Notes: generated by a model not told the origin, from the sequence alone. A DNA stretch of 64,000 nt from Gammaproteobacteria bacterium (GCA_026195255.1 JAPHSS010000026.1:15403-79402), one strand, 5' to 3'. Counted from the first letter of the stretch, positions 27,937 to 42,920 are shown. Program-made: numbers and translations.

Positions 27937-28770
27937 ATGGCTGACACAAGAGAATTTAAAGTGTTTCCTATAGGAATATCTGAGAATGATATTCAGATAC
28001 TTAAAAGGATACTCAGAGTGTCAACTGGTTCAGTTAGAAATTATGTTTTGACTGATGAAGAAAAATCAGTTCCAAATAAATTATATCTGGTTAATTCAGA
28101 TAACGACAAGGCAGTTTCTTACTGGGTTAAGAAATATCTGGGGTCTGATAAATTACCAACCGTAGCAACCGTTTTCGCCGGCAAGAGAAAGATTAATGGT
28201 GCAAGACTATATAATCTTAAAATGCCATTTTTAGCATCCCAGGTAATTAGTACTTTTGATACTGTCACTATAAAGGAAATGAATTTTATTCCAGAATTAA
28301 CGATTGGTGAGGTAATGGATGAGACCGCTTTATCTCATAGTTTTCTGGAAAACATAATTGATCGAAATTCAAATGGGAAAAATTTATTCAAAGCACTGGT
28401 AGTTGATGATAGTCAGCCAGTTAGAAAACAGCTTGAAATCGAACTAAAATTATTAGGTGCAGAAGTGGAGGCAGCATTTGATGGTAAAAAAGCAATAGAA
28501 TTATGTAGAGATAATGATTACGACATTATATTTTTAGATGTTGTGATGCCAGGAATGGATGGTTATAAAGTGTGTAAGTTTTTGAAAAAAAACACACAGA
28601 CCAAACATACCCCGGTAATAATGTTAACAGGTAAGTCATCACCATTTGACAAAGTTAAAGGCACCTTGTCAGGTTGTGATAGTTATTTAATAAAACCATT
28701 AAAAAGAGAGCAGTTTGAAAATATTGCAAGAAAATATATTCCTGATTTGAATGAAACGCAAAGAATGTGA
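27937..28770 (+). CDS. chemosensory response regulator with degenerate N-terminal pseudo-receiver plus canonical C-terminal receiver (FrzZ-like dual REC)
   Basis: C-terminal REC has all hallmark residues (VVDDS, FLDVVMPGMDG, LTG, IKP); the N-terminal ~140 aa has a receiver-like hydrophobic periodicity without a canonical acid pocket. Confidence 0.7.
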   Translation: MADTREFKVFPIGISENDIQILKRILRVSTGSVRNYVLTDEEKSVPNKLYLVNSDNDKAVSYWVKKYLGSDKLPTVATVFAGKRKINGARLYNLKMPFLASQVISTFDTVTIKEMNFIPELTIGEVMDETALSHSFLENIIDRNSNGKNLFKALVVDDSQPVRKQLEIELKLLGAEVEAAFDGKKAIELCRDNDYDIIFLDVVMPGMDGYKVCKFLKKNTQTKHTPVIMLTGKSSPFDKVKGTLSGCDSYLIKPLKREQFENIARKYIPDLNETQRM

Positions 28771-28865
28771 AAAAAACCTATTTATAAAAAATGGAAAGTA
28801 AACTAATTTATAACTGTAAGGGCTAGATAATAAATATTTAAGTTATAGACCGAGGAGAAAGTATC

Positions 28866-29231
28866 ATGGCAATTAATAAAGTATTACTAGTAGATGACTC
28901 ACCAATGGATTTGGCAAACATAAGGTGTATAGTTTCTGATGCTGGGTATTCTGTAGTAACAGCAACAACAGGAATTGAGGCAATTGAAGTCGCGAAAAAT
29001 GAAATGCCCGATTTAATATTTATGGATATAGTTATGGAAGGTGCAGATGGTTATGATGCATGTAGAGAAATAACACAAAATGGAGATACAAAAACTATAC
29101 CCGTGGTATTTGTATCAAGTAAAAATCAGAAGGCTGATAAGGTATGGGCAGAGCTACAGGGTGGCAAAGCTTTTATTACAAAGCCATATACGCCTGAACA
29201 GATTTTAGACCAGATAACAGCGCTTAATTAA
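28866..29231 (+). CDS. single-domain CheY-like response regulator (PilH-like)
   Basis: 121 aa, LLVDDSP...FMDIVM...TKP receiver signature. Confidence 0.8.
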   Translation: MAINKVLLVDDSPMDLANIRCIVSDAGYSVVTATTGIEAIEVAKNEMPDLIFMDIVMEGADGYDACREITQNGDTKTIPVVFVSSKNQKADKVWAELQGGKAFITKPYTPEQILDQITALN

Positions 29232-29263
29232 TTAAAACCATAAACCCATATACTAGTGAGACT

Positions 29264-29803
29264 ATGATTAATACAGAAAATAATTGCCTTGACCCTGAAA
29301 GCGCATTAAGTAGATTTAAAAAACCTGAGAATCTACTTATTAATGATCACGCAGAAGGCAAAAAAACTGCAATCAACAGGTATGGGTTTGTTGTTGAAAA
29401 CATGGGTTTATTGATATCAGAAAATACGCTAAGTGAAGTTGTTCGAAATAAAAATATCTGTCCTTTACCAAATACCAGAAAGTGGATGAAGGGCTTAATA
29501 AATATTCGTGGAAATCTGGTTCCAGTATATGATTTATCATTATTACTGGGTTTAACGTCAGTAAGCAGCAACTACAATAATGTACTGGTTTTGGGTAAAG
29601 GGGTTCGTTCAGTTGCAGTTGTAATTGAAGGCTTGCCACGACAGTGTAATGTAAGTGACTGGCATAAGATGGTTGACTTCCCCTGTGATATACCTGGTTT
29701 GAAAGATCACATAATTGAAGTTTATATGTCTGATAAAATTGTCTGGATGGATTTCAATCAGCATAGTTTTTTTGAATCAGTAAAAAGAAATGTGGTTATG
29801 TGA
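29264..29803 (+). CDS. CheW-like coupling protein (PilI-like)
   Basis: 179 aa, CheW core INIRGNLVPVYDL. Confidence 0.7.
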   Translation: MINTENNCLDPESALSRFKKPENLLINDHAEGKKTAINRYGFVVENMGLLISENTLSEVVRNKNICPLPNTRKWMKGLINIRGNLVPVYDLSLLLGLTSVSSNYNNVLVLGKGVRSVAVVIEGLPRQCNVSDWHKMVDFPCDIPGLKDHIIEVYMSDKIVWMDFNQHSFFESVKRNVVM

Positions 29804-29909
29804 TTAATTTAAATATAACTATAAATGTAATATGTTTTTAATGATAAGAGTGTTTTTTTATACATAAATCATTGTGTTTTTTTTAAAGCATTATCTGGAG
29901 AAGTTTAAT

Positions 29910-32075
29910 ATGAAATATTCAAATATTAACAAACTTGGCAAATTAGCTAATATAAAGATCACGCAAAAACTAATAGGCGTTGTTGTTGGTCTTTTAATTG
30001 GTTTTGTTATTATTGGTTTGGCTTACCAGAGGGTGCTACAGGCAGAAAGAGAGGCCGTTGAGGTTTCTGAAAAGATGGTGACATTTGAACGAGGTATCCA
30101 TGAGGTTCAGCTGGATCTTCTGAATGCCAGACAAAGTGAAACTGAATTTTATCTTAAAAAATATCCAATATTTTTAGGTAAATTTGATACGCGTATTATC
30201 GTTGCAAGTCAAAACCTGAAAGGTTTGACTAATCTGGTAAAAGGTGAGGATAAGTTAGATGTAATCACTGAATTAGGCGAGGCCTTCGAAAACTATCGAG
30301 ATAAGTTTATACAAGCCGCGGATTCGCAGATAGAAATTGGGCTAGATGAAAATACAGGCATGAATTCAAGCCTGGCTAATGCGTCTAAAGTTATTGAAAC
30401 TGTTCTTAAAAAACATAATGTGCCTGTTCTAGATAGATCGTTACTTAGAATGCGTCAACATTTAAGTGATTATATTAATTTTGAAGAACCCAGGTACAGT
30501 GAATTACTTATTAAAGAAATACAATCATTTAGAGCCGCAACTGAAAATTCTAAATTGTCTGCGCCAGTTAAATTAGAAATACGTAAAGCGCTTGCAAATT
30601 ATAAAAGTATATTTCTAACAATGTCTGAAACCGTTTCTATGTTAGCAGAGCAGAAAAAAGCAGTAAAACAATCGGTTAAGACAATCGAGCCCCTGTTTTC
30701 AAAAATGGTCAGCATTAGTAATGAGATAATTTCTACAACAAGAGAAGAAGCATCGGCAAAACGTAATCAGATTACAACGTTCTTTATATCTACACTTGTA
30801 CTTATTGCTGTAGCTGCATCCTTAGGTCTATTTTTTCTGGCGAGAAGTATTATTAAACCGATGAAAGTATTACAGGATACGGTTTTAAAGGTGAATGAAG
30901 GCGATTTAAACGTCAGGGCAGGGCTTGATCGTAAAGATGAGCTGGGAGATTTATCAAATGCACTTGATAAACTACTCGATGAAAAACTCGCCTCTATGGC
31001 GCAGTCTGAAAAAGAAAATGACAAGTTGAACGAGTCAGTAATTTCATTGATCAGGGCAGTTAGTCAGCTTGCACAGCAGAAAGACCTGGCAGTAAAAATT
31101 CCAGTTTCAGAGGATATTACCGGGGCGATAAGTGACTCATTAAATCTATTGGCCAAAGAAACTGCGAAAATAATGAAGGAAGCGCAGGTGACGTCATCTG
31201 AAGTTGCCAGTGTGTCATCGCTGGTTAAGAAACAATCAGATACGGTAATATCGGTTGCTAATACAGAAAGAAAAGAAGTTGAAAGTACTGCCCTGATGCT
31301 GGAAAGCTCAGTTAAGGCTATGAATGAAATTGCACTTAATTCTGAAGAAGCAAACAAGAAAGCTGAAATAACGAGTGTAAATACACAACAGGCACTGGAT
31401 GCTGTTATGTCATCTGCTGATGGTATCAAGTCGATACGTGACACTATTAGTGAGACAGAGAAACGAATTAAACGTCTGGGTGAGCGTTCACAGGAAATTT
31501 CAGGTATTGTAAGTTTGATTAACAGTATTGCAGAACGAACACATATACTGGCCTTGAATGCGAGTATGCATGCTGCATCTGCAGGTGAGGCGGGTCGAGG
31601 GTTTGCCGTGGTTGCCGATGAGGTGCAAAGGCTTGCGGAGAATGCGCGTGAAGCAACCTCAGAAATCTCAACGGTAGTTAACAATATAAGGGTTGAGACG
31701 GCTGATACTGTGGCTATTATGAATACTGTAATTACACAGGTGGCCGAGGGAACCCAGCTGGCTAATCAGGCTAGTCAGAGCATGAAACATACACAGCAAG
31801 CAACTAATGATCTGATCGGTTCGGTTAGGCATATAGCGAAAAGTTCTGAACAACAGGTCGATATTAGTAAGCAGTTATTAGTTCGAGCAAGAAGAATTAA
31901 AGAGAGCACAGAAGAGACCGGGCGAGAGTTATTAGAGCAGACAAAGAGTGCTGATAAGTTAGTGCGTTATTCTGAAGACCTGGTTGCAATCGTGGGCATA
32001 TTCAAACTACCGGCTATTAATAGCGAACAGGACGAAGAGGCGTATAAAACAAGCGAAATAAAGCAGGCAGTGTAA
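29910..32075 (+). CDS. methyl-accepting chemotaxis protein (PilJ-like, ~270-aa periplasmic domain, HAMP)
   Basis: ATG at 29910 with GGAG RBS; two TM helices; highly conserved MCP signalling domain [31 protein letters not shown]. Confidence 0.9.
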
Positions 32076-32105
32076 TATAAATAAAAGGCATGGCGCCTTA
32101 TTGGC

Positions 32106-35100
32106 TTGAATTATACAGGTATCGAGATGATTGATTCTGACATTGAAGGTAGTGAGTTAGGTACAGAGCAATTTGATGCGTTTTTTGCAGTAGCATCAAG
32201 ACTATCTGTAGATGCAGAGTGCGCTCATCTGGATTTAATGGATTATGATAAATATTTTTCTTCAATATGTGAGTTGTTGTTACCTTATAATCATGCGGTA
32301 TTTCAGGACCTGGCAAGCATTCTGTCAGAGGGGTTGAATAAAATAATTAATGAAAACAGACCCTTGATCGATAGTGAGTGTGTTTTTCTAAAAAGAATAC
32401 CTGAAATATTATCCGAATATGCCTTTATACCTGAAAGTAAAATTCCTGACTTACATCTTTTAAATCACTTTAAAAATGAATCATGGGTGCGTCCTGTCAA
32501 TACGGATGAAGAAAAAGTTTTGTTACATCACTTGCTTGATAAAACTAAAAAAGCCGTCGATTCGGAAGTGCAGGTGGATGAAGAAATATCTGAAGTATTA
32601 GAAGTCTCAAATCAGCAATATAATGATAAGTGTGAAATAGATATATCGGATATAGGCGCCGAGTTAGATGTTTCTATCAGTGATTTTGAAACTTCGGTAA
32701 ATAAGCCTGATGATAATCATAAAACCGATGATTGCGGTGCTCGTGCGGATGAGGAAGAGCCTGAAGTATCTGAGGTCTCAAATCAGCAATACAATGATCC
32801 ATCTGATATAGATATATCGGAGATAAGCGCTGAGTTAGATGTTTCTATCAGTAATTTTGAAGCCTCGGTAAATAAACTTGATGATAATCATAAAACCGAT
32901 GACTGCGGCGTTCAGGAGGGTGAAGCAGCATATGAAATATTAGAAGTCTCAAATCAGCAATACAGTGATCAATCCGATATAGATATATCAGAGTTAGGGG
33001 TTGAGTTAGATGCTTCCATTGGTGATTTAGCAGCGGTGATAAATAAGGATGTTAATGATTTTAAAATCGGTCTTGCAGAGTCACCGGAAGAGTTGAGTGA
33101 ATCAGACGACGCCGAAGGTGAGTTTAATATTGAAGATGCACTTGAGGTTTCCCGGTTTTATGAAGAAGATTCTGAATTAGAGACAAATGATTTTGAATCT
33201 GAATTATCACTAGATGATCTCGTTGCGGATGATGTTGGCTCATTTAAGGATGAAAATATAGTTAACATTGGTGATCTGGCGGAAGAGTATGAAAGTGACG
33301 ATCAACAAACAATAGAAATTAACCCAGAACAGAAAGAATTAATTGCTTTAATTGCAGAAGAGTTAATAGAGTTTAATCAGGATAAAGAATCGATTCTGGT
33401 TGATGCTGAGAAAAACACTGTAGACTTTAAAAACAATCTCTTATCCATAGCAGATCAAACTGAAAACATAAGAAATGCCATAGGTATTATTGGTTTGGAA
33501 GGTCTGTCAAATGTGACTGATTTTGTGTCAAAAAACATTCATGCCCTAGCTACAAACGATACAGTCCTGACGAGAGATCAGGTGGCTATGTTAGGTCAGT
33601 GGGCTGATTATATTCTTTCATATTTAAATGATATAGGTAATAAGCAGGTATGTGCTGACATTCTTCAGTTCATCAAAAAACCATTCTGGCCAGAGCTCAT
33701 GGAAGATGGTATTTCTGAATCTCTGGAGCAGTTATTGGTCAGTCCTCAGCTAAAAGAAGAAGAAAGGGAAGTTAGAAAAAATATTGCCTCACCTGAAGAC
33801 ATGTCATTAGTTTTGCCCGATGATGTTAATCCCGAGTTATTAGAAGGCTTGCTTCAAGATCTGCCAATACAAACCGGTGAGTTTTCTGTTGCGATTCATA
33901 ATTTATACGACCAGCATAATATTGAATATTTAGAAATAGCACAACGCATAGCACATACTCTTAAAGGTGCTGGTAATGTTGTCGGAGTGAAAGGCATTGC
34001 CAATCTGACGCATAATTTAGAAGATATACTAGAAATTCAGTTTAAAGCTAAGAAGTTGCCAGCTGGCGAGTTATTAGAGGCGTTAATAGATGCGGCGGAT
34101 TGCCTGGAAACAATGTCCGAAGCATTATTGGGTATTGATGAACCGCCCGATAATGCGCAATCAGTTTATCAGTCGGTATTAGACTGGGCTAATAAGCTAG
34201 ATGCGGATGGAGCCACATGCCTGGATCTAGCGGTTGCAAAGCGCAGTGATATTAAATTAGTTGAAGCTGAAGAAAAAAACGTTGCTAAAGAAGTAAGCTC
34301 GGCTGTTAAAAGTCCGCTTAATATTGAAAACATGTTGAGGGTGCCTGCTAAGCTCGCCGATGACTTACTAAGACTGGCTGGTGAGAATTTAATATCTACT
34401 TCTCAGATTCAGGAATACATTAAAATCATTCAAGCCAGATATAAAAATTTAAAACTGCAAGATCAGAGTTTACAGAAATTTTCCTACGATCTGGAGCATA
34501 TAGTTGATGTTCAGGGTATTTCAAATAGTGGCCCTATCAATAATGTAAGCAATGATGGTTTTGATTCGCTTGAACTTGATCAGTTTCATGAGTTGCACTC
34601 GATGAGCCGAAGGCTGGTTGAACTAGCGGCAGACTCAATTGAGTTAACTCAAATTCTTGAAAAAGACTTTTTAGAATTACAAAATCTAGTGGTAAATCAG
34701 GGTCAGCTACAAAAAGAAAATGAGCAGTTAGTTCTACGAACACGAATGGTACCTATCAGTACTATTGTGCCAAGATTAAAAAGAGGGGTTAAACAGGCAT
34801 CCAGGCTAACCGGAAAATCTGTTGATTTACATGTTGAAGATAATGATACATATATGGATAGCGAAGTTTTAAATAGCTTGATTGAGCCGTTAATGCATAT
34901 CCTTAGAAACTCGGTAGGTCATGGAATTGAAGATACCCAGGAAAGGCAGGAAAGAGGTAAAGTTAATCACGGTCAAATTAATCTGATTTTTTTACAAAGA
35001 GGAGATCAGATAGTTATCAAAATAACAGACGATGGAAGGGGTTTGAGTTTATCTGAAATAAAAAATAAGGCCATTTCACTGGGTTTGGTGAAATCTGAAA

Positions 35101-36137
35101 ATGAAGTTACAGAGCTTAATCTGCAAAACTTTATTCTTCAGCCCGGCTTTTCTACGCGTACTGAAGTTAACCAGATGTCAGGGCGAGGTATTGGTCTGGA
35201 TGTGGTTAATAGTAAAATTCGAGAATTAAAAGGTAGTATTGAAATACAGTCAGCGGAAGGCCAGGGTTGTCAGTTTCTTCTTACTTTACCCATATCTTCA
35301 TTTTCTGTTCATTCATTGTTGGTGCGAGTAAGAGAAAATATATATGCATTTTCAAACAGAGGTATTGAAGAGATTTTATACTCTGGATTAGGCGAACTAC
35401 AGAAGGTTGGTCATGAGACAATGTTTAAACTGGAGGATCAGTATTATAATATTTCAATGATCGAGTCTCTACTGAGTCTGCCAGAAGATAGAAGAGAAGG
35501 TGATCGTGATAATCGTCCGGTTATACTGGTTAAAGATGATACTGCATCACATACCGCTATCCTGGTACAGGATGTTATAGATAGTCGGGATGTTGTTGTT
35601 AAGTCAATGGGGGAATATATACCCAAAATACCAGGAATTATTGGGGCTACCGTTTTAGGTGACGGAAGTGTTGTTCCTGTAATTGATTTACCTGAATTGA
35701 TGCAATCCAGACAGATTATTGATAATACCTATACTGAAGAACATATTGTATTACATGAAGAAAAGAAACTGCCATATGTTTTAGTCGTTGATGACTCATT
35801 AAGTGCGAGAAAATCTCTGGCTCAGTTTGTAGAAGATCTCGGCCTTCAGGTGAGAACGGCTAGAGACGGAATGGAAGCGGTTTCATTAATTGAAGCTCGT
35901 AAACCTGATTTAATTCTGGTTGATATGGAAATGCCACGTATGAATGGTCTTGAGTTAACGGGGCATATCAGAGCATCTTCCATTACTCAAAATATGCCAG
36001 TTATCATGATTACTTCGCGATCAACAGATAAACACCGTAAAGCTGCAATGGATAAAGGTGTTGATCATTATATGGTCAAACCATTTGCTGAAGATGAGCT
36101 GGCCATTCAAATTAACTCTGCTTTAAAAACTGCATGA
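32106..36137 (+). CDS. hybrid CheA-type histidine kinase (acidic repeat region-Hpt-HATPase-CheW-REC; ChpA/WspE-like)
   Basis: Hpt HTLKGAG; N box HILRNSVGHGIE; G1 DDGRGL; G2 GRGIGLD; CheW-like domain; C-terminal receiver VLVVDDS...LVDMEMP; three 57-aa tandem repeats in the N-terminal region; the ORF starts on TTG, with an alternative ATG at 32127. Confidence 0.9.
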   Translation: MNYTGIEMIDSDIEGSELGTEQFDAFFAVASRLSVDAECAHLDLMDYDKYFSSICELLLPYNHAVFQDLASILSEGLNKIINENRPLIDSECVFLKRIPEILSEYAFIPESKIPDLHLLNHFKNESWVRPVNTDEEKVLLHHLLDKTKKAVDSEVQVDEEISEVLEVSNQQYNDKCEIDISDIGAELDVSISDFETSVNKPDDNHKTDDCGARADEEEPEVSEVSNQQYNDPSDIDISEISAELDVSISNFEASVNKLDDNHKTDDCGVQEGEAAYEILEVSNQQYSDQSDIDISELGVELDASIGDLAAVINKDVNDFKIGLAESPEELSESDDAEGEFNIEDALEVSRFYEEDSELETNDFESELSLDDLVADDVGSFKDENIVNIGDLAEEYESDDQQTIEINPEQKELIALIAEELIEFNQDKESILVDAEKNTVDFKNNLLSIADQTENIRNAIGIIGLEGLSNVTDFVSKNIHALATNDTVLTRDQVAMLGQWADYILSYLNDIGNKQVCADILQFIKKPFWPELMEDGISESLEQLLVSPQLKEEEREVRKNIASPEDMSLVLPDDVNPELLEGLLQDLPIQTGEFSVAIHNLYDQHNIEYLEIAQRIAHTLKGAGNVVGVKGIANLTHNLEDILEIQFKAKKLPAGELLEALIDAADCLETMSEALLGIDEPPDNAQSVYQSVLDWANKLDADGATCLDLAVAKRSDIKLVEAEEKNVAKEVSSAVKSPLNIENMLRVPAKLADDLLRLAGENLISTSQIQEYIKIIQARYKNLKLQDQSLQKFSYDLEHIVDVQGISNSGPINNVSNDGFDSLELDQFHELHSMSRRLVELAADSIELTQILEKDFLELQNLVVNQGQLQKENEQLVLRTRMVPISTIVPRLKRGVKQASRLTGKSVDLHVEDNDTYMDSEVLNSLIEPLMHILRNSVGHGIEDTQERQERGKVNHGQINLIFLQRGDQIVIKITDDGRGLSLSEIKNKAISLGLVKSENEVTELNLQNFILQPGFSTRTEVNQMSGRGIGLDVVNSKIRELKGSIEIQSAEGQGCQFLLTLPISSFSVHSLLVRVRENIYAFSNRGIEEILYSGLGELQKVGHETMFKLEDQYYNISMIESLLSLPEDRREGDRDNRPVILVKDDTASHTAILVQDVIDSRDVVVKSMGEYIPKIPGIIGATVLGDGSVVPVIDLPELMQSRQIIDNTYTEEHIVLHEEKKLPYVLVVDDSLSARKSLAQFVEDLGLQVRTARDGMEAVSLIEARKPDLILVDMEMPRMNGLELTGHIRASSITQNMPVIMITSRSTDKHRKAAMDKGVDHYMVKPFAEDELAIQINSALKTA

Positions 36138-36138
36138 T

Positions 36139-36642
36139 ATGACAGATTTACAATTTAAAAATAAATTACTAAGAGATGATGCTAAATATCATGTTTCGAT
36201 ATTGTCTTTTGCGGGTATTAAGTTAATTGTTCCGCAAAGTGAAATCCTCTCTATTGAGAGTATTTACGAATTAGAAAGTAATGAAGATAATGACAATAAT
36301 TACATAGGTGTGATTTATAAACAGGGAATCAAACTTCCCGTATATTGCTTTTCAAAATCTATGGATATATATAAATCCTTACCTGAAGACCGCTTTCAAT
36401 GTGTGGTACTTCAGCATGAAAATATTATGTTTTCATTGCTTTGTTATGAAATTAGCAATGCAGTTATTAGTGAAATTGAATTTCATAACTTACCAGTATG
36501 CATGAATAATAAGCGTATTCCATTAACCCACTTATGTTTATATAAAGATGCAGAAAATATAAATAAGTTAGGAATGGTGACCAGCGCTGTTTGTTTAAAC
36601 GAGTATATTAATAAACTAAAACGTCACTCCATGAAGCTTTAA
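36139..36642 (+). CDS. degenerate CheW-like small protein
   Basis: 167 aa; the hydrophobic pattern matches the CheW fold (GVIYKQGIKLPVYCF resembles GvxNLRGxxxPVxDL); call is tentative. Confidence 0.4.
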   Translation: MTDLQFKNKLLRDDAKYHVSILSFAGIKLIVPQSEILSIESIYELESNEDNDNNYIGVIYKQGIKLPVYCFSKSMDIYKSLPEDRFQCVVLQHENIMFSLLCYEISNAVISEIEFHNLPVCMNNKRIPLTHLCLYKDAENINKLGMVTSAVCLNEYINKLKRHSMKL

Positions 36643-36644
36643 TT

Positions 36645-37112
36645 ATGAAAACAGATAATAATGATAGTGGTGTCGCTGCCTGGTTGCTACAGGTAGACAG
36701 GCTTGTTAATGTGGCCATTGGGCAGTTTGAACTTATCCATATAATCGATGAACCAGACTATATGGGGATACCTCAAGCCCCTGATTACTGTAAGGATGTT
36801 GTTTTATGGAACAACAATATAGTACCGGTAATGAGTTTGGCGTCATGGTTAACCTCTTGCTTACAGGTCGATAACACAGGCGTGGTTGCTATCGTTGTAT
36901 ATGAAGATGAGCAGGGTAAACATAAGTTTGGTGGAATAAAGCTTAGCAGCCCACCAGTTCAGGCCAAAGTGAAGAATAGCCAGCAATGCCAGCTAACAGA
37001 CGATTTTGATAAGTGGCGAAAAGTGTCGCTCTCGAGCTTTAAGTCTAAAACTGGCGATATTGTGCCTATAATTGATGTCAGTAAACTGTTTTCACATGTA
37101 TTATTGAGTTAA
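36645..37112 (+). CDS. degenerate CheW-like small protein
   Basis: 155 aa; VVLWNNNIVPVMSLASWL and IVPIIDVSKLF match the CheW core signature. Confidence 0.5.
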   Translation: MKTDNNDSGVAAWLLQVDRLVNVAIGQFELIHIIDEPDYMGIPQAPDYCKDVVLWNNNIVPVMSLASWLTSCLQVDNTGVVAIVVYEDEQGKHKFGGIKLSSPPVQAKVKNSQQCQLTDDFDKWRKVSLSSFKSKTGDIVPIIDVSKLFSHVLLS

Positions 37113-37230
37113 CAACCGTTATGTCGATAGAAGAATGTCGATAGTAACCTAAATGATAAAAGATAGATAAATCTGAAATGTCTCTAACATAAGAGAGTAA
37201 TGGCGTAAAACCTGCTCTCAGGAGTTATGT

Positions 37231-37878
37231 ATGAAGTTGAATACAGAGAAAACTAGACTTTTATTAGTAGATGATCACGCAATAGTCAGGGCGGGATTTA
37301 GATATTTACTTGAAAGTGACGCTGATTATGACATTCTTGAAGCCGATTCGGCTGAAGAGGCGTGTAAAGTCTATGGTGATTATAAGCCAGATGCGGTAAT
37401 AATGGATTTAATGATGCCAGGAATGGGGGGGCTGGAAGGTTTAAGGCATTTAAATGCAAAAGATAGAAATGCCAAAATACTCGTTCTAAGTATGCGGGAT
37501 GATCTTGCATATGTGACCAGAGCTACTCTTGCAGGGGCTACCGGATATTTAACTAAACGCAGTGCAGCTGAAGAGCTTGTTAAAGCAGTAAATGTGGTAA
37601 TAAAAGGTCAGCATTATCTGAGTGCTGATATATGCGAATCAAATCGTAATGAACCTTATGTATCTGAAGAAGATAAAATTAAAGGCTTAACAGAGCGTGA
37701 GTTTGAAATATTTTGTTTACTTGCTGAAGGTAAAACAGTAACAACAATATCAGTAGATCTACACTTGAGCCCAAAGACGGTTAGTAATCATAGAACACGC
37801 ATTATGCATAAACTCAAAACATCAAACATTGTTGAGTTAACGCATTTAGCTATTCGTAATGGTTTAGTCGAAGCGTAA
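37231..37878 (+). CDS. NarL/FixJ (LuxR)-family response regulator, putative pathway output
   Basis: REC (LLVDDHAIV...IMDLMMPGMGG) plus C-terminal LuxR HTH (LTEREFEIF...TVSNHR). Confidence 0.85.
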   Translation: MKLNTEKTRLLLVDDHAIVRAGFRYLLESDADYDILEADSAEEACKVYGDYKPDAVIMDLMMPGMGGLEGLRHLNAKDRNAKILVLSMRDDLAYVTRATLAGATGYLTKRSAAEELVKAVNVVIKGQHYLSADICESNRNEPYVSEEDKIKGLTEREFEIFCLLAEGKTVTTISVDLHLSPKTVSNHRTRIMHKLKTSNIVELTHLAIRNGLVEA

Positions 37879-37890
37879 TCGTTTTAAATA

Positions 37891-38586
37891 TTATATCGTT
37901 TCATTACTGGTGGTTAAGCGGTTTAGTAATAACTGAGTGAATCTTTGTCTTCTATTAATAACTAAATAAGCATTTTTTATTAGATAATTAATAATAGCAT
38001 CAACAGATTCATCAATAGTTAAAAGTGAAGTGTCAATGATTATTTCGGCTGATTCTGGTGCTTCGTAAGGCGAATCAATACCTGTGAAGTGTTTTATCTC
38101 GCCGGCCCGTGCTTTCTTATATAAACCTTTTACGTCTCGATTTTCACATAAGTCTAAAGGGCATTTTATATATATCTCAATAAACTCTGTTTCATTAACA
38201 ATATTTCTGACGCATTTTCTATCTTTAAGAAATGGAGATATAAATGTTGCAAGAACCATTACACCTGCATCGATAAAGAGTTTAGAGACTTCACCAATAC
38301 GGCGTATATTCTCAGTCCGGTCATTATCACTAAAGCCAAGGTCATTACTTAGACCGTGTCGAACATTATCACCATCCAGCAGATAAGTTCGAAAGGCCTC
38401 CTTATGGAGTCGCTGCTCTAGCGCATTGGCTATTGTGGTCTTTCCTGAGCCTGACAGGCCGGTAAACCAGATTATGGCAGATCTTTGTTTGTTCAGGTTG
38501 TCTCTACGGTCTTTGGTTACGTTAACTTCACTCCAAACCACATCACTTGATTTCTTTTGTTCAATGTTTACTGACTCATTCTTCAT
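37891..38586 (-). CDS. cysC: Adenylylsulfate (APS) kinase
   Basis: P-loop GLSGSGKTT and typical APS-kinase sequence. Confidence 0.85.
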
Positions 38587-38924
38587 AACTCACCTGCACC
38601 TGCGTTGCGTCTATAGACAAATGTTATAAGTTAAGAGCTTATAAAAATGTCTTATAAAAAGAATATATTAAATATTTAATTTTGGCATAGGAAAAACTCC
38701 TTATCTTAATGGTTTCGTTAAAATAACCCGGATTAGGCAACCGAGAGACTAGCTTGCGGTGAGCGCGTAGGAAAAATTCCCTTTCTTGGAAAATAGTGTA
38801 TGTTTTATAGGAGTAATGCCTATACTGTTAATCACGATGAAATATGTTTTGTAATTTCGTTATATAAATACTTTATGAGGATTCAGTGTTTTCTGGGTGT
38901 TTATATAGAGCTGTAGGTTGATTT

Positions 38925-40157
38925 ATGAGTGTTAATGCCAATGAATGCCTTGCACAGGGGCGGCCATCATTATTGTCTTTATTCTGGATTTTTCTAAAAA
39001 TAGGTAGTACCGCTTTTGGTGGTTTCATGGCCCTCATATCGGTTGTACAAAACTATCTGGTCAATAGAAAAAAACTATTGTCAGATGAAGAAATGCTTGA
39101 CGGGATTTCTTTAGCAACCATCTTACCTGGCCCGGTTGCTGTCAATGTGGTTGCTTATGCAGGTTATAAAATTCGTGGCATTTCTGGCGCCATTGTATGT
39201 GCTGTCGCAGTAATATTACCTTCTTTTTTCCTTATTTTATTTCTAAGTTATGCCTATTTTTCCTGGGGTGATATGCCTGCAGTGGATAGTGTATTTAAAG
39301 GTTTTTTACCTGCAGTCGCCGCAGTTATAGTCGCAACAGTAATCAATATGGGGAAAAAATCCTTAACTGGATTTAAAGAAACAACAATTGCTGCAATAGC
39401 TGTAGCTGTTCTCGTGCTGATTGGTGGTTTTTTCAGCACCCTGGCAATTATATTATGTGCAGGGCTGGCAGGCTTGTTATTATTTAAAAATCATAAAGAT
39501 GTGGTTCAGGTAGATAATATTAAAGCTTCACCAAAAGAAGAGAAATCACATCTTAAACAGTTTCCAATACTCATACTGGCATTTATTGCAGTATGTGCAT
39601 TACTTCTAACAGCGCCATATATCATCAGTTCCAGTACTTTTATGGCGGCTAAACTATTAGCTACATTTTCCGGTATGAGTTTGCTTTTATTTGGTGGGGG
39701 GTTTGTTTTTATACCCTTAATGCAGGAGTCAGTAGTTGAAACCTATCACTGGATAACACATCAGGAATTTATTGATGCTATTGCTATGGGGCAGATAACA
39801 CCAGGGCCAATATTAATAAGTGCGACATTCATTGGTTATAAAGTAGCAGGCGTATTTGGCGCGGCAACGGCAACAATCGGAATATTCACGCCACCTGCAA
39901 TGTTAATGCTTGTGTGTACGCATTATTTACAGTTATTAAAAGAATCAATTTATTTGAAGGCAATATTAAAGGGTATTCGGTGTGCTGTGATAGGCATGAT
40001 TTTAGCGGCGGCTTATTTTGTAGCCATGTCTTCGGAAATAAATGTGGTAACTAGCGGAATATTTATTCTGTCAATGATTGCTCTCCTTAAATTTAAACTT
40101 GAAGTGGTATGGATTATACCTGCGTCAGGTTTAATTGGGCTTATAGCCTTTTCCTGA
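38925..40157 (+). CDS. chrA: ChrA-family (chromate/sulfate-like anion) transporter
   Basis: 410 aa, ~12 TM, duplicated CHR-domain pattern. Confidence 0.7.
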   Translation: MSVNANECLAQGRPSLLSLFWIFLKIGSTAFGGFMALISVVQNYLVNRKKLLSDEEMLDGISLATILPGPVAVNVVAYAGYKIRGISGAIVCAVAVILPSFFLILFLSYAYFSWGDMPAVDSVFKGFLPAVAAVIVATVINMGKKSLTGFKETTIAAIAVAVLVLIGGFFSTLAIILCAGLAGLLLFKNHKDVVQVDNIKASPKEEKSHLKQFPILILAFIAVCALLLTAPYIISSSTFMAAKLLATFSGMSLLLFGGGFVFIPLMQESVVETYHWITHQEFIDAIAMGQITPGPILISATFIGYKVAGVFGAATATIGIFTPPAMLMLVCTHYLQLLKESIYLKAILKGIRCAVIGMILAAAYFVAMSSEINVVTSGIFILSMIALLKFKLEVVWIIPASGLIGLIAFS

Positions 40158-40232
40158 GTTTTTAATGTTCTCGCCTAACTAGTGAGATGGTAGTTTTATT
40201 TTAATAACAATAACTTATATTTGGAGTAAAAA

Positions 40233-41240
40233 ATGGAACCTGTTTTTATGATTGGTACGCAACGATCTGGTTCAAACCTGCTGAGATTAATGTTAAATCA
40301 ACTTACCGATATTGCTTCACCCCATCCACCGCATATTCTAGAACGCATGATGCCTTTAATGAGTTCTTATGGAAGTCTTGAGAACGACGCCAGTTTCAAA
40401 ATGTTAGTTGATGATGTGTGCAGGCTGGTTGAATTAAACCCGGTTGAGTGGAGTGGTGTTAAGTTTGATAGAGAAAGCATAATTTCGAAGTCTTCAGAAA
40501 GAAGTTTAATGGCTGTTTACCATGCAGTATATGATGCGTATGCTGAAGCCCAGAATGCTAAAACATGGTGCTGTAAGAGTCTGGCTAATATTAAATATAG
40601 AAATGAAATTAAAGATTATTTCAAGCACCCTAAATTTATTTATTTATACCGTGATGGCCGTGATGTCGCTCTGTCATTTCAGAAAGCCGTTGTTGGTGAA
40701 AAGCATATCTATAACATCGCAAAAGACTGGGCTGATACACAAGCCATGGCTTTGAATTTAAAATCATCTGTGGATGAGAAATATTTTCATTCTATTAGTT
40801 ATGAGCAGTTAACGCAGAACCCGGAAGAGTCAGCCAAAGCGCTTTGCAAATTTTTAGGCGCAAAATATGTACCTGAAATGCTTGATTTTCATAAAACAAA
40901 TGAAGCTAAAAATGCTGCCCAGTCGAGTGAGCTGTGGGGTAATGTAACAAGTCCAATTTTGAAAAATAATAGTAAGAAATATAAAAATGAAATGTCTGAA
41001 AAGGATGTTCGAATATTTGAGTCAGTAGCGGGTCCAATGCTTGATTGTTTAGGTTATGAGCGAGATTTTATTCCCATAGGTGAAGAGCAGGTGTTTGCAA
41101 AAGGTGATATTGATAGCTTTAACAAACAGAATAAAAAACAGAAAATAGAAAACATGTCAAAAGTAGATGAAAACGATAAAAAAAGAAGAGAAAGGCAGGC
41201 TAAACTGTTAGAAGAAATAAAATCAAGATCTGCTGCTTAA
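40233..41240 (+). CDS. PAPS-dependent sulfotransferase family protein
   Basis: N-terminal 5'-PSB-loop IGTQRSGSN typical of bacterial sulfotransferases (Stf0/Sulfotransfer_3-like). Confidence 0.7.
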   Translation: MEPVFMIGTQRSGSNLLRLMLNQLTDIASPHPPHILERMMPLMSSYGSLENDASFKMLVDDVCRLVELNPVEWSGVKFDRESIISKSSERSLMAVYHAVYDAYAEAQNAKTWCCKSLANIKYRNEIKDYFKHPKFIYLYRDGRDVALSFQKAVVGEKHIYNIAKDWADTQAMALNLKSSVDEKYFHSISYEQLTQNPEESAKALCKFLGAKYVPEMLDFHKTNEAKNAAQSSELWGNVTSPILKNNSKKYKNEMSEKDVRIFESVAGPMLDCLGYERDFIPIGEEQVFAKGDIDSFNKQNKKQKIENMSKVDENDKKRRERQAKLLEEIKSRSAA

Positions 41241-41277
41241 GTCTACAATGTTTACCGGTTAAACGGGAGAATTAGTA

Positions 41278-42105
41278 ATGTTAAAGATGAATTTTAAACG
41301 GATTTCAGTGTTGTTATTAGTGTTAATTTATCCGCTGGAGGCGCTGTCTGATTATCTGTTTACAGCGCCACCAAGAGAGAGCCCTGAACGGGGCGCTGAA
41401 ATATATAAACCGATTGCTGATTTTCTAACTAAATCTACAGGTGAGCGGTTTATATATAAGCAGCCTTCGAGTTGGGCTGAATATAGTCAGGCTATGCAAA
41501 ATAAAGAATATGACCTGGTTTTTGACGGGCCACATTTTGTTAGCTGGCGAATTGAATATATTCAACATGATGTGCTGGCAAAATTACCTCAGCTGCATAT
41601 ATGGCGCGTTATCGTAAGAGCTGACGCGCCGGGCATTAATAACCTGGATGATTTAGTTGGCAAAAAAGTCTGTGCTCCCAAGTCGCCCAATTTCGGCATG
41701 TTGACGATGATGAGTCATTATACTAACCCGGAAAAAGAACCGATTCATATTATTACAAAGGGCTGGAAAGGCGCGTTTAACGCGGTTGTCGAAGGCAAGT
41801 GTGTTGCAGCCGTGATACCCAAAACAAATCATCGCAAGTTTGACCCGGATCTGAAAAAAACAAAAGCGCTACACACCCATCTGCCCTATCCAAACCAGGC
41901 TTTTACGGCGGGAGCGGGCATAACACCTAACTTGAAATCTAAAATAGCTAAAGAGCTGTTGTCTCCGGAAGGTCAGAGCGCATTATCACACTTACGTGAT
42001 AGGTTTACCCGTGGTGCCTTGTTGGTAAGTGCCGATAATGAAGAGTATGAGGGTATTAGTATGGTCTTAAAAAGAGCTGATAATTTCAGAAGTGCAGCAA
42101 AGTAA
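41278..42105 (+). CDS. orphan PhnD/SsuA-like periplasmic substrate-binding protein
   Basis: Signal peptide; periplasmic-binding-protein-like sequence; no adjacent permease or ATPase. Confidence 0.45.
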   Translation: MLKMNFKRISVLLLVLIYPLEALSDYLFTAPPRESPERGAEIYKPIADFLTKSTGERFIYKQPSSWAEYSQAMQNKEYDLVFDGPHFVSWRIEYIQHDVLAKLPQLHIWRVIVRADAPGINNLDDLVGKKVCAPKSPNFGMLTMMSHYTNPEKEPIHIITKGWKGAFNAVVEGKCVAAVIPKTNHRKFDPDLKKTKALHTHLPYPNQAFTAGAGITPNLKSKIAKELLSPEGQSALSHLRDRFTRGALLVSADNEEYEGISMVLKRADNFRSAAK

Positions 42106-42383
42106 ATACATATTAAAACCCCGTAATTTTCATATGTAACTGATTGTGAGTTAGAGGCCTGATGCGCTGACTCACGATTCATATCATCTTGAGCTAACCC
42201 ATAACAATATTTCTGCTTTGAATTGTGGTTATCTCGTCTCAAGTGTATTAAAAAACCATTAATTACATAATTTCATCGCGTATTCTTAGCCTGTGCCTGT
42301 CACGAGTGTTAAACTCTTCTCAAATTTAATATGCATTACATAGTAGAGGGTAATATGGTCGGGTTTGGCAAACGGATATATTT

Positions 42384-42920
42384 GTGACTGTTCGTATTCT
42401 CGGCATAGACCCCGGCTCGAGGCAAACGGGTTATGGCATCATAGACTCTGATAAAAACCATTCCACGCATATTGATAGTGGTTGTATTTATGTTAAGGGT
42501 GAAACTTTTGCTGATCGTTTAGGGGATATTTTTCAGAAAATAAGCATCATTATTTCTGAATATGAACCAGTCGAACTCTCTATTGAACAGGTTTTTGTGA
42601 ATAAAAATGTCGATTCTGCATTAAAGCTGGGTCAGGCACGGGCGGCAGCCATTTGTGCAGCAGTGAATGCGGGTTTAAAGGTTAGCGAATATACACCAAA
42701 AGCCGTTAAAAGCGCTGTGGTAGGCTCTGGAAATGCCAGCAAAGAGCAAGTACAGCACATGATGTCAATGTTATTGAAGCTGGAAAAAGGCCTTCAGGCG
42801 GATCAGGCAGATGCTTTGGGTATTGCTTTATGCCATGCTCACAACCGGAGTTTGACGGGTAAAATAGCATTGCCGGGGCGTAAGCGCTCATCAACACGCT
42901 GGACATCGGTGCCTAAATAA
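42384..42920 (+). CDS. ruvC: Holliday junction resolvase RuvC
   Basis: GTG start; ILGIDPGSR motif. Confidence 0.9.
   Translation: MTVRILGIDPGSRQTGYGIIDSDKNHSTHIDSGCIYVKGETFADRLGDIFQKISIIISEYEPVELSIEQVFVNKNVDSALKLGQARAAAICAAVNAGLKVSEYTPKAVKSAVVGSGNASKEQVQHMMSMLLKLEKGLQADQADALGIALCHAHNRSLTGKIALPGRKRSSTRWTSVPK

Follow-up and report, generated by a model that had tools for sequence, protein, structure and literature searches.

What brings a gene for adenosine 5'-phosphosulfate (APS) kinase, a carrier of the type named for chromate efflux, a sulfotransferase and a phosphonate-type periplasmic binding protein together is the question raised by positions 37891..42105 of a 64,000-nucleotide stretch (the window, on which all positions are counted) from a Gammaproteobacteria bacterium (GCA_026195255.1 JAPHSS010000026.1:15403-79402). 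The best explanation is that the segment supplies the core enzymes of a "sulfation and sensing" island that is accessory and laterally mobile, a picture that as a whole is given a probability of about 0.5. Its central part, a dedicated route from 3'-phosphoadenosine 5'-phosphosulfate (PAPS) to the sulfotransferase, is considered very probable.

Four open reading frames (ORFs) were found by ORF listing and family scans at exactly the coordinates given in a first-pass annotation of this DNA, and chance ORFs are excluded for the segment because all Pfam scores are far above their curated cut-offs. The stand-alone cysC reported on the minus strand (37891-38586, 231 residues) was confirmed as an APS kinase gene (PF01583, 233 bits; NF003013, 307 bits against a cut-off of 163; TIGR00455, 279 against 138.7), with the P-loop GLSGSGKT visible in its translation. 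Divergent from it across a spacer of 338 bp, as had been described, lies the gene of a ChrA-family carrier of the CHR superfamily (38925-40157, plus strand, 410 residues), which consists of two Chromate_transp halves (PF02417, 285.7 bits) and scores 268.9 bits with TIGR00937 (cut-off 171.7). It is followed on the same strand by the gene of a PAPS-dependent sulfotransferase (40233-41240, 335 residues; PF13469, 100.1 bits; PF00685, 50.6 bits), the N-terminus of which reads MEPVFMIGTQRSGSN and contains the TQRSGSN loop by which the enzyme had been recognised. The last gene encodes a PhnD-like periplasmic binding protein (41278-42105, plus strand, 275 residues; PF12974, 77.7 bits) with a hydrophobic leader at its N-terminus. 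Its description as an orphan was borne out by the ORF listing, in which no ABC permease or ATPase stands beside it; its neighbours are the sulfotransferase gene and ruvC, with ruvCAB located downstream of the segment.

The source genome (3.56 Mb, 99.9% complete by marker genes) was found to hold a single APS kinase gene, cysC, and a single Sulfotransfer_3 gene, two genes from it. A Sat-type ATP sulfurylase is encoded once, alone on a different contig, and APS is available in the cytoplasm from Sat and possibly also from dissimilatory AprAB. The premise that the organism is an autotrophic sulfur oxidiser was upheld, as Sat is accompanied in the genome by AprA (860 bits, above its cut-off), by an adjacent pair of NIR_SIR-family ORFs (437 and 367 residues) that is consistent with DsrAB and was assigned at family level, and by two RuBisCO large subunits. 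Neither cysD, for which a search elsewhere in the genome had been advised, nor a PAPS/APS reductase gene (cysH) was identified in the genome, the sole weak match to PF01507 (31 bits) being TilS of 450 residues. Given their absence, cysC cannot serve assimilatory sulfate reduction, a role that the first-pass annotation had set against its own proposal of a dedicated PAPS supply. With one APS kinase, one sulfotransferase and no reductase or cysD, the PAPS is therefore made for sulfation and not for assimilation, and the only consumer of PAPS visible in the genome is the neighbouring sulfotransferase. Also encoded are seven SulP-family carriers and a CysQ homologue, 45% identical to a CysQ from a Serratia plasmid, that is predicted to be available for recycling 3'-phosphoadenosine 5'-phosphate (PAP).

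Judged from its sequence and its predicted fold, the sulfotransferase looks competent, with both PAPS-binding motifs in place. A word-indexed search returned 3077 protein homologues at E <= 1e-3, the best 120 of which are 59-92% identical to it over the full length. In an alignment of 22 homologues the 5'-phosphosulfate-binding loop GTQRSGSNLLR was invariant (22/22), as was the 3'-phosphate-binding motif YLYRDGRDVxxSF (Y137...S148-F149; 22/22), the presence of which had been left to alignment to decide. In a profile search the two motifs align to SSPRSGSTLLR and YIYLVRHPYSVIESF, respectively, of the sulfotransferase domain of CurM. Stretches reading PHPPH and CCKS were likewise invariant in the 22-homologue alignment, and the invariant H31 and H34 of the former, located at the position of ELH in CurM, are candidates for the catalytic base. 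A profile search of PDB sequences placed CurM first (E 4.5e-17), followed by the OLS sulfotransferase (2.8e-11) and the tyrosylprotein sulfotransferases TPST1/2 (~1e-8). Comparison of the AlphaFold model (mean predicted confidence, pLDDT, 91.1) using Foldseek placed the TPSTs first (E 1e-9, TM-score 0.58-0.70) and then the CurM and OLS enzymes, and among the 43 PDB matches at E <= 0.001 all those listed were sulfotransferases or proteins of the sulfotransferase fold. Profile and fold place the enzyme, for which the first-pass annotation had left the choice between Stf0 and other families open, on the branch of TPST and CurM, with the Stf0 family PF09037 scoring 17.3 bits, below its cut-off of 22. 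All ESM Atlas clusters matched are named "sulfotransferase family protein". As the chain opens directly with strand 1, the enzyme is read from its sequence as cytoplasmic.

The fold and the PAPS-binding motifs are common to the window enzyme, TPST1/2 and the CurM and OLS sulfotransferases, but identity to these is only 18-22%. TPST is a Golgi membrane protein and the CurM and OLS enzymes are domains of polyketide synthases, whereas the window sulfotransferase is free-standing and, as predicted, cytoplasmic. It also has an extra conserved C-terminal helical hairpin (residues ~290-330), and no gene for an acyl carrier protein, a thioesterase, a peptide precursor or type I secretion was found nearby. 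A dedicated sulfate-activation supply placed with a sulfotransferase is a feature of the Nod-factor (NodPQ-NodH), mycobacterial Stf0 and RaxST loci. Those loci, however, encode acceptor genes or the export system of the acceptor, of which the window cassette has none, and the cassette differs from them further in being kept across phyla at >50% identity.

The breadth of this conservation was assessed with a pattern scan of one genome per species, which gave 512 stretches, 478 of them confirmed; locus counts refer to the best 80 of the 478, at 53-98% identity. By their record titles, from which the taxon labels were taken, these derive from unclassified Gammaproteobacteria, Acidiferrobacterales, Gallionellaceae and other Betaproteobacteria, Nitrospirota and Cyanobacteria (including Moorena, Waterburya, Leptolyngbya and Xenococcus), with one Methylomirabilis and one Bacteroidota metagenome-assembled genome (MAG). 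A ChrA homologue was found in 73/80 loci, and in 36 of the 38 that extend 5 kb or more to each side (full-flank loci). It lies on the strand of the sulfotransferase in all 73 cases, with a median gap of 92 bp and a gap of <=300 bp in 59 of them, and three of the seven loci without it are cut by a contig end beside the sulfotransferase. Genes of sulfate activation and PAP recycling were nearby in fewer of the 80 loci (CysC 30, Sat 23, often as a fused Sat/CysC, and CysQ 7), and CysC was near none of the 21 cyanobacterial sulfotransferases.

Within the carriers linked to the sulfotransferase, identity is at least 41% with a median of 53%, while it falls to 23-31% against the three non-linked sequences on which the definition of this clade rests, namely ChrA of pMOL28, ChrA of an Acinetobacter plasmid and the second ChrA of the genome. 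Pairwise identities of sulfotransferase and carrier were also correlated (r = 0.85, 2211 pairs, 67 loci), to which shared ancestry contributes. The classical chromate pumps of pMOL28 and Acinetobacter have two Chromate_transp halves and pass TIGR00937, as does the window carrier, but they have chrB next door, whereas the window carrier belongs to the separate clade, has no chrB neighbour and is paired with a sulfotransferase. It is well supported by these sequence comparisons that the window ChrA-like protein belongs to a clade bound to the sulfotransferase and not to chromate resistance. The suggestion that it may import sulfate rather than export chromate is accordingly supported as far as chromate is concerned; sulfate import itself is a possibility, export of a product being at least as likely. 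The second CHR-family gene (G000:C22:134261-135610, 449 residues), ~30% identical to the window carrier, is also without chrB and has an RDD-family gene, a pseudouridine synthase gene and gshA as neighbours.

The distribution of these genes among relatives of the source genome was found to be all or none. Sulfotransferase orthologues (56-98% identical, some cut by contig ends) were identified in 12 of 60 relatives, and ChrA orthologues (57-95%) have an identical distribution, being present in those 12 and absent from the other 48. The remaining ChrA matches are paralogues (28-35%), and many but not all of the relatives searched possess one similar in length to the second CHR-family gene. Orthologues of the binding protein (57-80%) occur in ten of the 12, the sulfotransferase lying at a contig edge in the other two, and in one further relative, G016. 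The chemoreceptor encoded upstream of the segment was searched for in 40 relatives, and orthologues (57-97%, full-length or contig-cut) were found in all nine sulfotransferase-positive ones and again in G016, with weaker matches (36-45%) in three more. G016 has a sulfotransferase remnant of 109 residues with a TAA stop and no ChrA orthologue, and keeps the binding protein (72%) and the receptor (63%) (C20:22908-24100; C81:5554-7677), as if the enzymatic half of the island had recently decayed. Another receptor, PilJ-like and of ~705 residues, is encoded in the source genome (contig C22) and in most relatives searched, with a CheA near it in G000. As the window receptor tracks the sulfotransferase and this PilJ-like receptor is separate and common, the window cluster is a second, accessory chemosensory system. 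There is good support for treating the whole block, with this system and the binding protein included, as a single accessory unit. The module proposed in the first-pass annotation is supported, but the breadth of the sulfotransferase-ChrA pair had been underrated there, as had the degree to which the chemosensory genes and "orphan" binding protein look like parts of the same unit.

An association with chemosensing was also observed outside this lineage. A methyl-accepting chemotaxis protein (MCP) or CheA was present in 38/80 loci and in 25 of the 38 full-flank loci, and in five clades (Gammaproteobacteria 11/21, Nitrospirota 7/14, Betaproteobacteria 7/10, Cyanobacteria 11/21, Acidiferrobacterales 2/11); as a rough baseline, taken from the source genome only and with similar criteria, 5.7% of the sequence is no further than 8 kb from an MCP or CheA gene. 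Gene orders were obtained by Pfam annotation of six loci. One Nitrospirota locus encodes, on one strand, Sat/CysC, ChrA, sulfotransferase, PhnD-like protein, MCP, STAS, CheA, CheR, CheD and CheB, and in a second the MCP and PhnD-like genes are divergent from CysQ, Sat/CysC, ChrA and sulfotransferase. The sulfotransferase and ChrA of Moorena bouillonii are followed by a PhnD-like protein adjoining a GAF-containing MCP, and in an Acidiferrobacteraceae locus ChrA, sulfotransferase and PhnD-like protein are followed by homologues of PilG, PilH, PilI, PilJ and ChpA. The orders ChrA-Sat/CysC-sulfotransferase and Sat/CysC-ChrA-sulfotransferase were both seen in Betaproteobacteria and Nitrospirota. 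Because gene orders and classes of chemosensory genes differ between phyla, the association of sulfation with chemosensing arose, or was kept, several times. ChpA homologues adjoin the ChrA-sulfotransferase pair in Gammaproteobacteria and Betaproteobacteria, and these two versions, which have in common ChpA and two small CheW-like genes, are probably of single origin.

Mobility is illustrated by two Serratia plasmids from river water, the only plasmid records found with a close ChrA (50%) or sulfotransferase (51%, full length). The one examined, of Serratia sp. JSRIV004 (NZ_CP074141), is typed as conjugative, and its cassette (L135, 95213-101254) encodes Sat/CysC, TauE/SafE, sulfotransferase, CysQ and ChrA between IS30 and Tn3 transposases. 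As read from its genes, the cassette is an autonomous, complete set for sulfate activation, transfer and PAP recycling with two anion carriers. It holds no acceptor-biosynthesis gene, and the acceptor should therefore be made by the host or taken up.

The model of the binding protein (pLDDT 88) gave fold matches with E values from 1e-17 to 1e-13, the nearest being the phosphite and hypophosphite binders PtxB and HtxB, the arsenate sensor ArrX, PhnD and the arsenite sensor AioX; one of the ArrX entries, a mutant, has sulfate bound. By sequence, HtxB alone was detectable (E 1.6e-4), and the subfamily models TIGR01098 (20.7 against a cut-off of 112) and TIGR04553 (24.4 against 250) were below their cut-offs. 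A hidden Markov model built from 17 binding proteins identified a PhnD-like protein in 45/80 loci, where BLAST had given 31/80, with no more than 700 bp separating it from the sulfotransferase/ChrA block in 34 of the 45. A PhnD-like protein and an MCP occur together in 19 loci and are directly adjacent in 14 of these (Nitrospirota 7/7, Cyanobacteria 5/6, Gammaproteobacteria 2/5). In a Waterburya MAG (L061:13027-15324), PF12974 (147.5 bits) is fused to an MCP as its sensor domain, and this receptor is encoded 2.7 kb downstream of the sulfotransferase-ChrA pair. We lean slightly towards a sensor function for the window binding protein. Its partnership with the receptor is supported in other lineages by adjacency and one fusion, and in this lineage by co-inheritance alone.

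Precedents for such a sensor are known. In a review table AioX is given as an As(III)-binding PF12974 protein, with the kinase AioS as the target of its signal (PMC8050422). AioX and ArrX, of the same fold group, resemble the window protein in standing without an ABC partner in a signalling neighbourhood, but are 17-18% identical to it, and the partner here would be a chemoreceptor and not a kinase. PstS and CtpL of Pseudomonas aeruginosa are reported to be an oxyanion-binding periplasmic protein and the chemoreceptor to which it presents its ligand (PMC4926252). PstS, however, also serves an ABC importer, belongs to PF12849 and not to PF12974, and has no enzyme cassette.

Further relatives of the binding protein were noted. 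Five good PF12974 proteins are encoded in the source genome, and the gene of one of them (119 bits) immediately precedes that of another MCP on its strand (G000:C22:202397-205166), with a PAS-MCP divergent from the pair and a GGDEF-EAL protein before it; the palindrome TCGGGAATTTTTCCCTA, which resembles the sites in the cysC-chrA spacer described below, lies ~105 bp upstream of this PF12974 protein. On contig C1, a paralogue 52% identical to the window protein (L152; G000:C1:27000-39104) lies near Tox-PAAR-like and MipA-like outer-membrane proteins, with no sulfotransferase or carrier beside it. In two relatives a paralogous binding protein adjoins a paralogous sulfotransferase (31-32% identity). 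One expanded island (L153; G020:C15:6000-24000) encodes two CheW-like proteins, a PAS-HisKA_3 kinase, the LuxR regulator and a divergent cysC, followed by ChrA, the sulfotransferase, two binding proteins, a second sulfotransferase (31%) and then a group of MMPL, LolA-like and thioesterase genes.

In the mechanism that we propose, CysC would make PAPS solely for the cytoplasmic sulfotransferase, which would modify a small acceptor common to very different bacteria, since genes for making an acceptor do not accompany the cassette. The ChrA-clade carrier would move an enzyme-specific anion over the inner membrane. Export of the sulfated product is tentatively favoured for it, at a little under even odds, because the association of the carrier with the enzyme is far tighter than its association with Sat or CysC, because it is retained despite internal production of sulfate and APS and the presence of seven SulP carriers, and because a periplasmic sensor protein recurs next door. 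Uptake of sulfate is somewhat less likely and uptake of the acceptor unlikely. The PhnD-like protein would not be a transport part but a periplasmic sensor of an oxyanion or organosulfate, feeding the neighbouring chemoreceptor/ChpA pathway, and the NarL/LuxR-type regulator encoded beside cysC would act at palindromes between cysC and chrA. A more far-reaching version, which we regard as speculative and unlikely, is that the cell makes its own small sulfated chemoeffector out of a universal metabolite, which the carrier exports and the PhnD-like protein and chemoreceptor read back, steering a pathway of the type-IV-pilus class or another one.

The closest competing account, that of the first-pass annotation, reads the same genes as a supply chain in which the carrier imports sulfate, Sat and CysC activate it and the enzyme transfers it to an acceptor (for instance a lipid, glycan or metabolite) inside the cell or in the envelope, while the binding protein either senses external sulfate or a related oxyanion or is unrelated. 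The gene orders of Betaproteobacteria and Nitrospirota, in which ChrA stands next to Sat/CysC, would suit it, as would the extra TauE/SafE carrier of the Serratia cassette, which could be the exporter, and the sulfate-bound ArrX mutant among the fold neighbours. In Synechocystis, a published set of co-regulated transcripts includes chrA (slr1457) together with sbpA and cysT of the sulfate ABC system (PMC6508509). Sulfate and APS are made internally, however, and the genome has its SulP carriers, yet the ChrA orthologue is confined to sulfotransferase-positive relatives; linkage of the carrier to the sulfotransferase (73/80) far exceeds that to CysC (30/80) or Sat (23/80), with none to CysC in Cyanobacteria (0/21), and a generic sulfate importer is unlikely to co-diverge with one enzyme to the extent seen (r = 0.85). 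We therefore hold this account to be possible but doubtful.

Less likely again is a binding-protein-dependent secondary transporter, in which the PhnD-like protein delivers its ligand to the carrier in the manner of TRAP or TTT systems and also reports to the chemoreceptor as maltose-binding protein does. The position of the binding protein within 700 bp of the block in 34/45 loci and its lack of an adjoining ABC partner in the window would agree with this, and in Acidiferrobacterales two to three tandem copies of the binding protein adjoin ChrA at loci without Che genes in the vicinity. On the other hand, 9/10 betaproteobacterial and most cyanobacterial ChrA loci have no detectable PhnD-like neighbour, so the carrier does not need a binding protein, and we know of no CHR member that uses one. 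An assembly by coincidence, of a housekeeping cysC, a chromate pump, a stray phosphonate gene and an ordinary Pil-Chp system, is very improbable. It draws on database names only, "chromate efflux transporter" for TIGR00937 and "phosphonate ABC binding protein" for PF12974, and is at odds with the absence of cysH and cysD, with a carrier that has no chrB and is 23-31% identical to ChrB-linked ChrA, with the TIGR01098 score (20.7 against 112), with the linkage across phyla and all-or-none presence among relatives, and with the separate PilJ/CheA set elsewhere in the genome that is common to most relatives searched.

Several observations weigh against the sulfation and sensing island with product export as preferred here. 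The CHR substrates characterised so far are, to our knowledge, without exception small inorganic oxyanions, a better match to sulfate than to an organic ester; ChrA stands beside fused Sat/CysC in Betaproteobacteria and Nitrospirota, which is naturally read as a supply chain for sulfate, and the Serratia cassette has a candidate exporter of its own in the TauE-type carrier. The locus counts overstate independent events, as the best 80 of 478 include close kin. The window binding protein and the receptor are encoded 9 kb apart, and the Nitrospirota binding proteins are only ~20% identical to that of the window. Acidiferrobacterales have the binding protein in 10/11 loci and an MCP or CheA in 2/11, while Betaproteobacteria have a Che cluster in 7/10 and the binding protein in 1/10, so the link between the two is not universal. 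The palindrome model matches ~45 other places in this AT-rich genome, and the palindromes are assigned to the LuxR-type regulator by inference.

This regulator, a NarL/LuxR-type response regulator with REC and GerE domains (37231..37878, plus strand; PF00072, 94.7 bits; PF00196, 65.6 bits), adjoins the segment. Its identification as UvrY/GacA was rejected, NF007018 giving 168 bits, below the cut-off of 280. A LuxR-type regulator was found in 11/80 loci, ten of them in the Gammaproteobacteria group. The spacer between cysC and chrA contains two operator-like sites, ATAGGAAAAACTCCTTA (38687..38703) and GTAGGAAAAATTCCCTT (38767..38783), both near-palindromes of the form ATAGGRAAnnTTCCYnA. A site of the type ATRGGRAAnnTTCCYnA, usually in two copies, was present in this spacer in 8/8 relatives scanned with the final pattern, with diverged flanking sequence; one relative in ten had escaped a stricter earlier pattern. 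The genome-wide matches come from a weight matrix that includes some off-by-one duplicate sites and serve as leads only. The layout resembles the 7-2-7 arrangement of NarL-type operators, and the adjacent LuxR-type regulator may act on the two palindromes. In one relative a PAS-HisKA_3 kinase is encoded between the CheW-like genes and the regulator, where the window has none.

The adjoining chemosensory pathway (27937-37112) and the regulator, to which the first-pass annotation had already pointed, were both found to be real by family scans; all genes of the pathway are on the plus strand. It begins with a response regulator with a C-terminal REC domain (27937..28770; PF00072, 87.8 bits, residues 154-262), in the first 150 residues of which no Pfam family was found at E <= 1e-4. 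This is followed by a single-domain CheY/PilH-like response regulator (28866..29231; PF00072, 86.8 bits), a CheW/PilI-like coupling protein (29264..29803; PF01584, 57.1 bits) and the MCP (29874..32075; MCPsignal, 115.9 bits, with HAMP), which has a periplasmic domain of ~250 residues (~52-303). A ChpA-like hybrid CheA follows (32106..36137; Hpt, HATPase, CheW and REC domains by Pfam). Its residues ~150-330 include three tandem acidic units of ~50 residues, …EVSNQQYND.SDIDISE..AELDVSI..FE.SVNK.DDNHKTDDCG…, where relatives align poorly. Two small genes complete the cluster: the first (36139..36642), without a Pfam match, encodes a CheW-like protein and stands directly after ChpA in Gammaproteobacteria and Betaproteobacteria loci, and the second (36645..37112; PF01584, 34.1 bits), also CheW-like, is conserved beside it.

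Scans for other elements gave little. No Rfam match was obtained for positions 37000-42500 at E <= 1, and neither promoter-like counts (15 against 19.0 +/- 4.3 in shuffles) nor terminator-like counts (3 against 3.9 +/- 2.3) of the region were above those of shuffled sequence, so that a weak hairpin in the gap between chrA and the sulfotransferase gene (40169-40187) is no evidence of a terminator. The small ORFs of the cysC-chrA spacer include no convincing candidate for a peptide precursor.

The enzymology of this module is of a known kind. The conserved sulfotransferase-CHR pair, with its recurrent coupling to sensor and chemosensory genes, appears to be undescribed, no description of a sulfotransferase-ChrA module with sensing genes having been found in a full-text literature search. 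Acceptors are known for only a few bacterial sulfotransferases, most of them restricted to one lineage, as for Nod factors, mycobacterial sulfolipids, RaxX and some natural products. The family of the window enzyme, by comparison, is >50% identical across Gammaproteobacteria, Betaproteobacteria, Nitrospirota, Cyanobacteria and a Serratia plasmid. Naming its acceptor would annotate hundreds of genomes and would show a large branch of the CHR superfamily not to be about chromate. As the module is compact (four to six genes) and occurs on a conjugative plasmid of an environmental Serratia, its heterologous expression is practical. The pairing of sensor and chemoreceptor, together with the fusion, raises the question of whether sulfation or a sulfated compound is a chemosensory input. 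If the self-made chemoeffector were real, bacteria of many phyla would share a signal of a new class, mobile on plasmids, and a CHR-family carrier would for the first time have an organic substrate.

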